DNA from: a virus
Reading direction: 5' to 3' (one strand)
IMG/VR virus record: IMGVR_UViG_3300045421_000501
Location: 1 to 64,000 of that record
Length of the DNA stretch: 64,000 bases
In this document: positions 24,387 to 27,357 of the stretch, one piece after another
How positions within the stretch are numbered: the first letter of the stretch is position 1
Layout: every line of letters starts with the position of its first letter
Made by a program: the position numbers and the translations under genes
The notes under the pieces: model-generated
Told to the model about the DNA's origin: nothing
What the model saw: the letters and a program-made list of their open reading frames with translations, nothing else
Databases searched by the model: none

Positions 24387-24646
24387 CTAAAGTTTTAATG
24401 CTAAAAACAGGAATTGTTTTAATTTCTAAAATTGATGAGCTTTCGTCTGAACTTGGAGAACCAGATTGTATGTTGAAGCAACCTTTTGAAATGATTATGA
24501 ATTCAATGACAGAAGAATATAATCTAAGACCTTGGCCTAGTTTTAGTAGACAGCAGGAAATAATGATTCATTCAGATAGCATACTTACTATAGTTGATCC
24601 AGAAGCTGAATATCTTGAAAAGTATCAAAAATTGATTTCTGAATGA
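24383..24646 (+). CDS. Conserved hypothetical protein upstream of gp43
   Basis: ELGEPDCMLKQPF, IHSDSILTIVDP. Confidence 0.7.
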   Translation: MTKVLMLKTGIVLISKIDELSSELGEPDCMLKQPFEMIMNSMTEEYNLRPWPSFSRQQEIMIHSDSILTIVDPEAEYLEKYQKLISE

Positions 24647-25914
24647 GATATTATACTAATGTTCAAATGGTGGGCAATGAATTTCTTGTCCGTGGATTTG
24701 ATCAAAATAAATCTTTTATTTTGAGAGAAACTTGGCAACCCACACTATTTGTTCCAAGCAATAAAAAAACAAAATATAAAACTCTAGATGATAAATGCGT
24801 TCAAGATATTCAACCAGGATCAGTTCGAGATTGTAGGGAATTTATTCGAAAGCATGAAGGAGTAGACGGATTTCAAATATATGGAAATACTAGGTATATC
24901 TATCAATATATTTCAGAAAAATATCCAGAAGATCATATTGAATTTGATCTAAAAAAACTAAAATTAATAACTTTAGATATTGAGGTTGCCGCAGAAAATG
25001 GATTTCCAACTGTTGCAAATTGTGATGAAGAAGTCTTATGTGTTACGTTGCAAAATTTTTCAAATAAGAAAATACTAACTTTTGGACGAGGAAAATTTAA
25101 TAATAAAAATTCGGATATTCAGTATGTTGAATGTACTGATGAGTATGATTTACTAACTAAATTTAGTGCATATTGGGAAGAAAATCCTCCGGAAGTGGTT
25201 ACTGGATGGAACTGCGAATTATATGATATTCCATATCTTGCAACTAGAATTGGTAAAATTCTTGGAGAAAAAAGATTGAAAAAACTTTCACCATGGAGTT
25301 TGGTGACTAGTGAAGAAGTTTTTATTTCGGGAAGAGGTCATCTTACATATGATATTGGTGGAATTACCGTACTTGATTATTTGGACTTATATAAAAAATT
25401 TACATATAAAACTCAACAATCATATCGCCTTGATTATATTGCCGAAGTTGAATTAGGATCTAAAAAACTAGATCATAGTGAGCATGAAACCTTTCGAGAA
25501 TTTTATACAAATGATTGGCAAAAGTTTGTTGAATATAATATTCAAGACGTTAAACTTGTTGATGGATTGGAAGAAAAACTTAGGTTAATCGAACTCGCAG
25601 TTACGATGGCATTTGATGCGAAAGTAAATTTTAATGATGTATTTTATCAGGTTCGAATGTGGGATGCCATTATTTATAATTATTTAAAGAAAAGAAATAT
25701 TGTTATTCCACCAAAGAAAAATGTTGAAAAAAGTGAAAAATATGCTGGTGCTTATGTAAAGGAACCTATTCCTGGAATGTATGATTACGTGGTAAGTTTT
25801 GATTTGAATTCACTTTATCCACATTTGATTATGCAATACGCAATTTCCCCAGAAACACTTGTTGAAAAAGATGAACTCAATAAAAGAATTGCTGAACTTG
25901 AAAGTATGCTATAA
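24643..25914 (+). CDS. gp43: DNA polymerase B, N-terminal part (N-domain, 3'-5' exonuclease, motif A)
   Basis: LDIEV ExoI, TGWN..YDIPY ExoII, YNIQDV ExoIII, SFDLNSLYP motif A; ends ISPETL plus 17 extra residues and a stop. Confidence 0.93.
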   Translation: MRYYTNVQMVGNEFLVRGFDQNKSFILRETWQPTLFVPSNKKTKYKTLDDKCVQDIQPGSVRDCREFIRKHEGVDGFQIYGNTRYIYQYISEKYPEDHIEFDLKKLKLITLDIEVAAENGFPTVANCDEEVLCVTLQNFSNKKILTFGRGKFNNKNSDIQYVECTDEYDLLTKFSAYWEENPPEVVTGWNCELYDIPYLATRIGKILGEKRLKKLSPWSLVTSEEVFISGRGHLTYDIGGITVLDYLDLYKKFTYKTQQSYRLDYIAEVELGSKKLDHSEHETFREFYTNDWQKFVEYNIQDVKLVDGLEEKLRLIELAVTMAFDAKVNFNDVFYQVRMWDAIIYNYLKKRNIVIPPKKNVEKSEKYAGAYVKEPIPGMYDYVVSFDLNSLYPHLIMQYAISPETLVEKDELNKRIAELESML

Positions 25915-25922
25915 TATAAATA
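25915..25922 (+). promoter_or_regulatory. Late promoter TATAAATA inside the gp43 split
   Basis: Exact consensus immediately after the stop of the N-terminal half. Confidence 0.65.
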
Positions 25923-26030
25923 AGCGAGCACTATAATTGTAGTGAGATTTTGATAAAGCAAAGATTGAAAGAGTTTGGTATTAAAAAAATTAAAATTATA
26001 GAGAATTCAAATGTGGAAAGATGTTCGTAA
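25920..26030 (+). pseudogene. Probable C-terminal relic of a deleted homing endonuclease
   Basis: ATG-less frame ISEHYNCSEILIKQRLKEFGIKKIKIIENSNVERCS* resembles an HTH DNA-binding tail. Confidence 0.45.
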
Positions 26031-27357
26031 AATGACTCGTGAGGAAATTGTAGAAGAACTTGAGGTACTTAAACAGGTAAGAGAACTTTCCGTAAAGGTG
26101 AATGTAGATAAACTTCTCAAACAAGAGTTGGATTTGGAACCTTTGCAAAAGGTAAATCTCACTATGACTGCGAATGGAGCACTCTATCATAGGGTGAAAG
26201 GTATGCTTCCAGAGATCATGGAAAAAATGTATAGTGATCGAGTCATTTTTAAAAAGAAAATGCTCACTGCTAAACAGCAGTATGAAAAGACTCCAACCAA
26301 AGAATTAGAAAAGGAAATTGCCAGATGTAATAATATTCAGATGGCAAAAAAAATTCAATTGAATTCTGCTTATGGTGCAATTGGAAATAATTATTTTAGA
26401 TATTATAAATTGGAAAATGCTGAAGCAATTACTCTTTCTGGGCAAGTTTCAATTCGTTGGATTGAAAATAAGATGAATCTTTATATTAATAAAATTTTAA
26501 AAACCGATAATAATGATTATGTTATTGCTGCAGATACTGATTCCATTTATATTAATATGGGTCCTTTGGTTGAAAGTGTATTCAAGGGAAGAGAGAAAAC
26601 TACTGAAGTCATTGTCAAATTCCTTGATAAGATCTGTGAAGTGGAACTTGAAAAATATATTGAAAGTTCTTACCAAGAATTGGCAGATTATGTAAATGCA
26701 TATGCTCAAAAAATGCAAATGAAACGTGAAAATATTGCTGAACGTGGAATTTGGACTGGGAAAAAAAGATATGCATTAAATGTATGGGACTCTGAAGGTG
26801 TTCGTTATACTCAACCCAAACTTAAGATTATGGGAATTGAAGCTGTAAAATCTTCAACACCAGCACCAGTTCGAAGTAAAATTAAAGAATCTTTGGCAAT
26901 TATTCTAACAAAGACGGAAGATGATTTGATTGATTTTATTGAGAATTCAAAAAAACAATTTTGGAAATTGAGTCCGAGTGATATTTCTTTTCCTAGAAGT
27001 TGTAACAATATTGAAAAATATAAGAATTCAAATTCAATTTACCAAAAAGGAACCCCGATGCATGTAAGGGGTGCATTACTTTATAATTATTATATAAAAA
27101 AATTCAATTTGAGTAATAAATATAATGTTATCAATAATGGCGAAAAAATTAAATATTGTTATCTTAAAAAACCAAATCCAATTAACGAAAATGTAATTTC
27201 TTTTATTTCTGAATTTCCAAAAGAACTCGGATTAGAAAAGTATATTGATTATAATATGCAATTTGAAAAAGCATTTTTAGAACCGATCACAAGCATCCTA
27301 GATAAAATTGGGTGGGCAGCAGAAAAAACTTCAACGCTTGAATCATTTTTTATATGA
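26011..27357 (+). CDS. gp43: DNA polymerase B, C-terminal part (fingers, palm, thumb)
   Basis: KKIQLNSAYG motif B, ADTDS motif C, KKRYAL, C-terminal clamp-binding TLESFF. Confidence 0.93.
   Translation: MWKDVRKMTREEIVEELEVLKQVRELSVKVNVDKLLKQELDLEPLQKVNLTMTANGALYHRVKGMLPEIMEKMYSDRVIFKKKMLTAKQQYEKTPTKELEKEIARCNNIQMAKKIQLNSAYGAIGNNYFRYYKLENAEAITLSGQVSIRWIENKMNLYINKILKTDNNDYVIAADTDSIYINMGPLVESVFKGREKTTEVIVKFLDKICEVELEKYIESSYQELADYVNAYAQKMQMKRENIAERGIWTGKKRYALNVWDSEGVRYTQPKLKIMGIEAVKSSTPAPVRSKIKESLAIILTKTEDDLIDFIENSKKQFWKLSPSDISFPRSCNNIEKYKNSNSIYQKGTPMHVRGALLYNYYIKKFNLSNKYNVINNGEKIKYCYLKKPNPINENVISFISEFPKELGLEKYIDYNMQFEKAFLEPITSILDKIGWAAEKTSTLESFFI

Follow-up and report, generated by a model that had tools for sequence, protein, structure and literature searches.

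In a stretch of viral DNA of 64,000 nucleotides (nt), comprising positions 1 to 64,000 of IMG/VR virus record IMGVR_UViG_3300045421_000501 and referred to in its entirety as the window, gp43, the gene for the T4-type family B DNA polymerase, was found to be divided between two open reading frames (ORFs), gp43A and gp43B, which are separated by a gap of 96 nt. The locus belongs to a lake cyanophage-like virus from a freshwater sample. Taking the evidence as a whole, the explanation that we regard as probable is that a mobile cassette split gp43 into a two-subunit polymerase, that the gap is the scar of a nuclease gene, and that two short peptides added at the cut, a tail on gp43A and a head on gp43B, correspond to the arms of a helical hairpin and aid assembly of the enzyme.

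The gene, which is contiguous in relatives, is present here as ORFs of 423 and 448 amino acids (aa), split at a single fixed site. Pfam analysis assigned DNA_pol_B_exo1 (PF03104, 70.5 bits) and the beginning of DNA_pol_B (PF00136) to gp43A and the remaining part of DNA_pol_B to gp43B, with PF00136 scores of 51.4 and 52 bits on the two ORFs. Together they possess the 3'-5' exonuclease, motif A (DxxSLYPS) and motif C (DTDS) of a family B polymerase of the T4/RB69 gp43 type, with motif A (D387) located on gp43A and motif C (DTDS, residues 175-178) on gp43B, i.e., on separate chains. Alignment with the contiguous gp43 of DSL-LC03, P-SSM2 and S-SKS1 revealed gp43A to match up to ISPETL and then to continue for 17 residues, and gp43B to carry 31 residues ahead of VDKLL; in contiguous cyanophage gp43, approximately nine residues lead from ISPETL to VDKxL. 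The C-terminus of gp43A reads ...SFDLNSLYPHLIMQYAISPETL-VEKDELNKRIAELESML, followed by the stop codon, and the N-terminus of gp43B reads MWKDVRKMTREEIVEELEVLKQVRELSVKVN-VDKLL...ANGALY. The 114-kb contig contains no polB locus besides this one.

A search of positions 25300-26700 against Rfam at E ≤ 10 matched no intron family and returned only chance matches resembling small nucleolar or long non-coding RNAs. Signs of an intein, defined as an N-intein starting with Cys/Ser, a C-intein ending with His-Asn followed by Cys/Ser/Thr, and a length of ~100 aa or more, were absent at the split, where ISPETL is followed by Val (not Cys or Ser), His-Asn is missing and 48 aa are added in total. A preliminary description of this DNA, made from the sequence alone, had listed the two ORFs and their spacing, the placement of motifs A and C on different chains, the lack of intein ends and of an intron core, and the short linker in contiguous cyanophage gp43. 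All of these points were confirmed; the coordinates of both ORFs are given in Table 1.

Over positions 25500-26500, Logan contigs from three lake-water metagenome runs (depth 14-45) showed 0 differences and no gap relative to the window, which upholds the stop codon and the gap as first described; the three runs were separately assembled and may include the source sample and are, therefore, only partly independent. A contiguous allele of a related phage, in which 183 nt replace positions 25803-26206, was detected in the same lake samples (runs X1, X4, X6 and X7), so that cassette-bearing and cassette-free gp43 alleles co-occur there (402 nt and 183 nt, respectively). The tail and head peptides were found in more than 100 metagenomic protein clusters. 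In the form L-V-x-K-x-E-L-N-x-R-I-A-E-L-E-[KS]-M-L, the tail ends 57 of the best 120 gp43A relatives, with only proteins of half-gene length having been searched, and MWKDVRKMSREEIVEELEALKQVRELS, the head beginning with MW, forms the direct start of 95 of the best 120 gp43B relatives. In IMG/VR, both halves were located on 74 distinct contigs, and both peptides are present at every locus having sufficient upstream DNA; the co-occurrence of tail and head at split genes, suggested earlier as a check, was thereby found without exception. Among deposited phages, no gene with this split was found: when the head (50 aa) was used as a tblastn query on 50,697 phage records, the contiguous S-CAM7 gene was the only match, and none of the records has the head at the start of a gene. 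A literature search yielded no description of this palm split in cyanophages. The split is confirmed as genuine and conserved.

The extent of the inserted unit was evident from pairs of split and contiguous genes. Contig L101, which is split and carries a GIY-YIG-like nuclease gene in its gap, and contig L047, which is contiguous, are 98.4% identical in DNA sequence on both sides of the insertion, where 838 nt stand in place of 142 nt. The upstream breakpoint precedes the stop codon of gp43A by 76 nt, and the downstream one is reached 189 nt into gp43B. The same breakpoints (range 189-195 nt into gp43B) were obtained upon comparison of contig L157 with phage S-SKS1 at 92% flank identity. Tail and head are inside the transferred tract, and so is the palm segment following the head (26104..26200), which is 37-60% identical in split/contiguous pairs that are 93-100% identical elsewhere. 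Among 41 split genes, pairwise identity of the cassette tract correlated with that of the rest of the gene at r 0.20-0.42, compared to 0.78-0.97 for other segments, as computed on codon alignments. Split genes turn up at scattered places between contiguous ones in the tree of distal gp43B, whose well-supported branches require no fewer than 10 changes, and in the cassette tree, the nuclease type switches often. The tail allele mostly goes with the nuclease, being ...ELESML with GIY-YIG-like and ...ELEKML with HNH genes, with exceptions. From these comparisons, we conclude that the cassette is mobile, and, because of the breakpoints, the decoupled identity and the scattered trees, that the transferred unit includes, besides both peptides, the ~33 palm residues that follow, in a diverged version. 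The interval originally pointed out, 25780-26190, is close to the cassette tract delimited here (~25839-26200).

The content of the gap differs among the 74 contigs. In 48 of them, the gap (610-1092 nt) contains an HNH homing endonuclease gene, identified in these relatives by PF01844 (36.6 bits vs a cutoff of 21.4) and PHROG HNH families (E 3e-13), and in 13 others (570-658 nt), a GIY-YIG-like gene, the protein of which has PF22945 as its sole Pfam match at 18-21 bits, under the cutoff of 27, and shows a YVY-x10-FYVG...R pattern by eye. Another 13 contigs have remnants only, of 47-220 nt, in which pieces of the HNH gene are recognisable. In the window, positions 25920..26006 correspond to residues 154-182 of the homing endonuclease of contig L012 (tblastn, 86% identity, E 1e-11), so that the scar holds the helix-turn-helix end of the nuclease without the catalytic part. 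At the start of the gap lies a TATAAATA box, which is found at the same position and with the same sequence in contigs L131, L008, L012, L153 and L141 and presumably acts as a promoter. The window gap, thus, equals the TATAAATA box fused to the last 29 nuclease codons, with ~475 nt deleted. The window and L008, which bears the GIY-YIG-like gene, are sisters in the tree built from the cassette tract (98% support in the Shimodaira-Hasegawa-like approximate likelihood ratio test, SH-aLRT). Because the gap joins the 5' flank of a GIY-YIG-like gene to its 3' end and L008 is the sister, the window is, as judged from its sequence, a post-invasion scar, where gp43 is still split though the nuclease is gone. 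The tie between the split and a mobile element, proposed initially, was substantiated by the HNH and GIY-YIG-like genes in the gap of relatives and by the remnant in the window itself.

The two nucleases have a helix-turn-helix module of ~50 aa in common (42% identity, E 2e-11), which is C-terminal in the GIY-YIG-like (L012:1593-2138) and N-terminal in the HNH protein (L004:2270-2827), and their genes end in identical 3'-terminal codons that overlap the GGAG before gp43B. The shared module and codons suggest module exchange and a common target. No further copies of either endonuclease were found in the 114-kb contig. Upstream of both nuclease genes, an inverted repeat, ATCCACA...TGTGGAT or GGATA...TATCC, is located at the TATAAATA box, enclosing it in the case of HNH genes (L011, L006 and L004; first ~40 nt after the gp43A stop) and directly following it in the case of GIY-YIG-like genes (L131 and L008; first ~45 nt). 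This arrangement resembles the control by a late promoter and a hairpin at the ribosome-binding site described for mobE and I-TevI. Some HNH gaps have an additional small ORF 3' of the nuclease gene, such as a 66-aa Cys-rich ORF in L004; these are the gaps of L004, L005 and L121 (773 nt) and of L109, L128, L134 and L120 (~1090 nt).

Insertions homologous to tail and head were found in unsplit polymerases at the same point after ISPETL. Phage S-CAM7 (NC_031927) and contig L038 encode a contiguous gp43 of 867-868 aa with the insertion ...MDDLNIMIHNAQ-NDPSYD-QEKLEAMLQVRQLS..., and contig L250 encodes an intact gp43 of 860 aa, in which arms near-identical to those of the window are joined by a short turn within -NGKND-. 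These three share with the split forms the helix-turn-helix insertion and the cassette-type downstream segment (...LDLxPLK...TMTANGA.Y) and differ in being one ORF of 860-868 aa, with a loop of six residues (NDPSYD, in S-CAM7 and L038) or a turn of three (GKN, in L250) where the split forms have stop codon, gap and start codon. AlphaFold2 models of the unsplit natural forms L038 and L250, each with a mean predicted local distance difference test (pLDDT) score of 96 and local values of 91-97 at the hairpin, predicted a helix at residues 416-427, a 6-residue loop and a helix at 434-447 for L038, and a helix at 409-422, a 3-residue turn and a helix at 426-441 for L250. The model of L038, an unsplit relative, matched RB69 gp43 in Foldseek with a template modelling (TM) score of 0.86-0.90 (E 1e-69). 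Tail and head match the two arms of this predicted helix-turn-helix, which is contiguous in S-CAM7-like and L250-type gp43. Because only a 3-residue turn lies between the two helices of L250, the arms would be antiparallel neighbours, and the two hairpin helices are expected to pack against each other. The preliminary description had treated a normal insertion in unsplit homologues as speaking against its reading; such an insertion does exist (S-CAM7, L038 and L250), and it is taken here to indicate that the arms are neighbours. As L250 nests among split forms (95% SH-aLRT), it is best read as a healed split; S-CAM7, which is on a long branch, may be ancestral or an old healing. The hairpin may be older than the split or may have come in with the cassette. 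Since S-CAM7 (L084:1202-3805) is a cultured phage, it offers a tractable unsplit counterpart with a helix-loop-helix insertion and the cassette-type downstream segment.

Both peptides are under purifying selection. The ratio of non-synonymous to synonymous polymorphism (pN/pS) amounted to 0.34 in the tail and to 0.28 in the head, with ample synonymous change, compared to 0.20-0.21 for the flanking catalytic segments. Invariant or nearly so are L7, N8, R10, I11, E13, L14, E15 and M17/L18 of the tail and E12, I13, E16, L17, L20, K21, V23 and L26 of the head; residues 1-8 of the head were fixed by the search pattern, so that conservation there is uninformative.

Table 1. Features of the split gp43 locus, with positions referring to the window.
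Feature	Position	Strand	Description	Basis
gp43A	24643..25914	+	423-aa ORF: N-terminal and exonuclease domains, palm start through motif A, 17-aa tail	PF03104 and PF00136 positions 21-94; alignment to contiguous gp43 residues 1-406
Motif A (SFDLNSLYP)	25795..25821	+	Includes catalytic Asp387	Invariant columns
Mobile co-converted cassette tract	25839..26200	+	Approximate extent; replaces ~142 nt of contiguous gp43	
Tail peptide VEKDELNKRIAELESML	25861..25911	+	Equivalent of arm 1 of the predicted helical hairpin; in 57 protein clusters	
Intercistronic gap	25915..26010	+	96 nt; scar of a homing endonuclease gene	Alignment with relatives bearing the homing endonuclease gene; tblastn
TATAAATA box	25915..25922	+	Resembles T4-type late promoter; precedes GIY-YIG-like gene in relatives	
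Remnant of GIY-YIG-like gene	25920..26006	+	Final 29 codons, C-terminal helix-turn-helix module, stop codon lost	
gp43B	26011..27357	+	448-aa ORF: 31-aa head, palm remainder, fingers, motif C, thumb	PF00136 positions 98-270; best 120 relatives all 448-469 aa
Head peptide MWKDVRKMTREEIVEELEVLKQVRELSVKVN	26011..26103	+	Residues 15-30 equivalent of predicted arm 2; residues 1-14 split-form-specific extension	
Cassette-type palm segment (VDKLL...ANGALYHRVKG)	26104..26200	+	Version of the native palm segment carried with the cassette	
Motif C (DTDS)	26533..26544	+	Catalytic aspartates of the second chain	Invariant D175, T176, D177 and S178 of gp43B

In the mechanism that we propose, a mobile cassette would have split the T4-type family B polymerase gene between motif A and the fingers, the cassette being made up, in this order, of tail-helix codons, a stop codon, a free-standing homing endonuclease gene, a start codon, head-helix codons and ~33 diverged palm codons. 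It would pass between gp43 genes via homing or recombination. In the window, the GIY-YIG-like gene would later have been deleted to leave the 96-nt scar, with the gp43 split persisting without the invader. The polymerase would then consist of two subunits with a composite active site, the palm being completed across the subunit interface, and tail and head would occupy the places of the hairpin arms at the cut, most likely antiparallel against each other, and help to hold or align the two palm fragments. With the peptides travelling along with the nuclease gene, the insertion would be rendered harmless. We infer that the two chains bind each other; pairing of the helices in the split form is likely, because the peptides match the two arms of the hairpin predicted in unsplit gp43, and this pairing would matter for polymerase activity.

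A further-reaching version, which we put forward tentatively, as possible rather than probable, is that the cassette is a self-contained 'split-and-clasp' module, in which a nuclease brings along the two arms needed for a minimal helical clasp of antiparallel type and, with them, its own protein-level antidote, so that any invaded gp43 remains functional in two chains. The clasp would keep the gene viable after decay of the nuclease, as in the window, and might be turned into a hairpin by later healing. If the arms suffice for reassembly, they would represent a natural, portable heterodimerising tag of ~45 residues, and they would also account for the origin of short 'intercistronic spacers', that of phage 44RR among them.

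Several findings weigh against the proposed mechanism. A 3/4 hydrophobic periodicity of both peptides and a match of basic and acidic charges, on which the preliminary description had relied, gained no statistical support: the helical hydrophobic moment of the tail (0.21) is not above that of shuffled sequences (mean 0.25), that of the head is only marginally so (p ~0.04), and the net charges of the two peptides, -2 and -1, provide no overall charge complementarity. Residues 1-14 of the head have no counterpart in unsplit hairpins, and the Shine-Dalgarno sequence before gp43B is weakened in the window (TAGAG vs TGGAG in alleles bearing the homing endonuclease gene). In Aeh1 NrdA, the tails are dispensable for binding of the halves to each other and needed for dimerisation of the heterodimer (PMC3045599). 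The peptides might, alternatively, be passengers, with the halves assembling via the large native polymerase interface and tail and head being tolerated leftovers or having another role, for instance in positioning the composite active site, in contacting another replisome protein or as DNA/RNA signals for the endonuclease gene. We consider this rather unlikely, even though polymerases cut at the fingers tip, namely gp43 of 44RR and a class found in L175-L177 whose A' has 486-491 aa, function or are maintained with unrelated termini, the Aeh1 NrdA heterodimer forms without tails, the amphipathicity of the tail lacks significance, and T4-like gp43 proteins have loops of anywhere between 27 and 61 aa following ISPET, implying that insertions are tolerated there. 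Passengers would not be expected to show purifying selection at the amino-acid level near that of the catalytic flanks while synonymous change is plentiful, nor invariant hydrophobic positions (L7, I11, L14 and M17/L18 of the tail; I13, L17, L20, V23 and L26 of the head), and two unsplit forms with different loops keep both arms in a predicted tight hairpin.

That a single polypeptide is made after all, via translational bypass of the 96-nt gap, RNA splicing or protein splicing, appears highly improbable. Bypass in gene 60 is at home in T4-like phages and itself lies within a homing endonuclease cassette, and the window gap is short. However, the same termini flank gaps that mostly hold a whole endonuclease gene, GGAG is found ahead of the gp43B ATG in alleles bearing that gene, and both kinds of splicing are countered by the missing Rfam intron match, the missing intein residues and the total of 48 added aa. 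Bypass of the T4 gene 60 type, which goes with a fixed short gap, was rejected on the basis of gaps ranging from 47 to 1092 nt and a conserved gp43B ATG. Less credible still is an artefact or a dying gene, in which stop codon and gap would result from an assembly error or the polymerase would be a pseudogene. The window is a metagenome assembly and its gap endonuclease is clearly degraded, but the contigs of the three lake-water runs are identical at their depth of 14-45, both ORFs are intact and of full length with all catalytic motifs in the only polB of the contig, and the same architecture recurs in 74 other contigs and is under purifying selection. We retain the cassette-split, two-subunit polymerase with hairpin-arm peptides as the preferred reading.

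The locus implies that an essential single-chain replicative polymerase can survive a cut by a selfish element through its active-site domain. It adds a second, far more widespread natural case to the idea of tails as an antidote, which has so far been tested for the Aeh1 ribonucleotide reductase only. A full life cycle can be followed in natural sequences: near-identical contiguous genes are invaded, two nuclease types replace one another at a single site, the nuclease decays into scars of 47-220 nt, the window being one of them, and the split is, on occasion, apparently healed to give a contiguous hairpin. Annotators and surveys using g43 as a marker should be aware that many cyanophage polymerases are encoded by two genes.

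As in nrdA-a/mobE/nrdA-b of Aeromonas phage Aeh1 (Friedrich et al. 2007 as cited), a replication-related essential gene is split here by a free-standing homing endonuclease, with unique tails on both halves; the fixed-site split, the nuclease gene between the halves (in relatives) and the inheritance of the tails with the insertion are features that gp43 has in common with this class. In Aeh1 nrdA, the tails created by the mobE insertion are essential for activity, and a splicing-free remedy for gene fragmentation via tails was proposed as a general mechanism (Crona et al. 2011, PMC3045599). There, too, the tails arose with the insertion, and the enzyme regains its function with neither RNA nor protein being spliced. 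The earlier proposal of a non-splicing alternative to split inteins, consequently, holds as far as the splice-free split is concerned, whereas it is not new in kind, Aeh1 NrdA being the precedent (PMC3045599). The Aeh1 system differs in that the enzyme is a ribonucleotide reductase, its tails are oppositely charged (isoelectric points of 10.4 and 3.8) and it is known from one phage, while the gp43 tails correspond to hairpin arms without net charge complementarity, occur in hundreds of metagenomic alleles and have outlived the nuclease in the window.

The same enzyme, T4-type gp43, is encoded by two cistrons, 43A and 43B, in the Aeromonas salmonicida phages 44RR2.8t and 25 (Petrov et al. 2010, as related in PMC2988022 and PMC2677866), likewise with motifs A and C on separate chains. 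According to these two accounts, the spacer of 44RR is 49 nt of untranslated DNA, that of phage 25 consists of a spacer plus a seg-type endonuclease gene, and the Aeromonas gp43 halves co-purify and are active. The gp43A of 44RR2.8t has 498 aa and ends in ...ILASRGVKLDH, which corresponds to a split at the fingers tip, in agreement with the different cut position given for Aeromonas phages in the preliminary description; in contrast, the window split lies in the palm loop just after motif A, and the termini are unrelated. A second, unrelated split of cyanophage-like gp43, located at the fingers tip, was observed in contigs L175 (639-2099 and downstream), L176 and L177 (proteins P0042, P0046, P0072 and others), where A' has 486-491 aa and ends in ...LVDIEAEMKKRGLS before the stop, stop and start codons overlap and B' begins with MGYLIGGNKEEQENE...; this is the split site of 44RR2.8t (...ILASRGVKLDH, stop / MELELFRDF...). 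On the level of sequence comparison, the decay series in the cyanophage-like contigs shows a short spacer to be the remnant of an endonuclease gene, a point unclear for 44RR.

In the 'fractured genes' of marine metagenomes, split-intein halves flank a free-standing endonuclease gene (Dassa et al. 2009, PMC2677866). The order of N-terminal part, endonuclease and C-terminal part in cyanophage-like replication genes, the nuclease-less alleles and the hairpin upstream of the nuclease gene are as in gp43. Fractured genes yield one polypeptide through trans-splicing inteins; at the gp43 split, there are no intein motifs and only 48 aa (17 + 31) are added, so that the two chains must persist. In the T4 mobA / gene 60-39 topoisomerase cassette, the split is paired with a 50-nt translational bypass, as set out in the accounts consulted (Manning & Atkins, bioRxiv 10.1101/2022.08.31.505936; Bonocora et al. 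2011 as cited there). Here as there, the nuclease would move with flanking sequence that neutralises its insertion, one site is recurrently used and the nuclease is lost in a 'hit and run' manner, while gp43 has plain stop and start codons and no bypass. Reassembly of a split enzyme by tails stemming from a mobile element (Aeh1 NrdA) and a split gp43 in Aeromonas phages are, thus, already known; new are the place of the cut and the group of hosts, tails corresponding to a helical hairpin, a pair of nucleases that can stand in for each other, a series of decay stages accounting for 'empty' spacers, and the healed forms.

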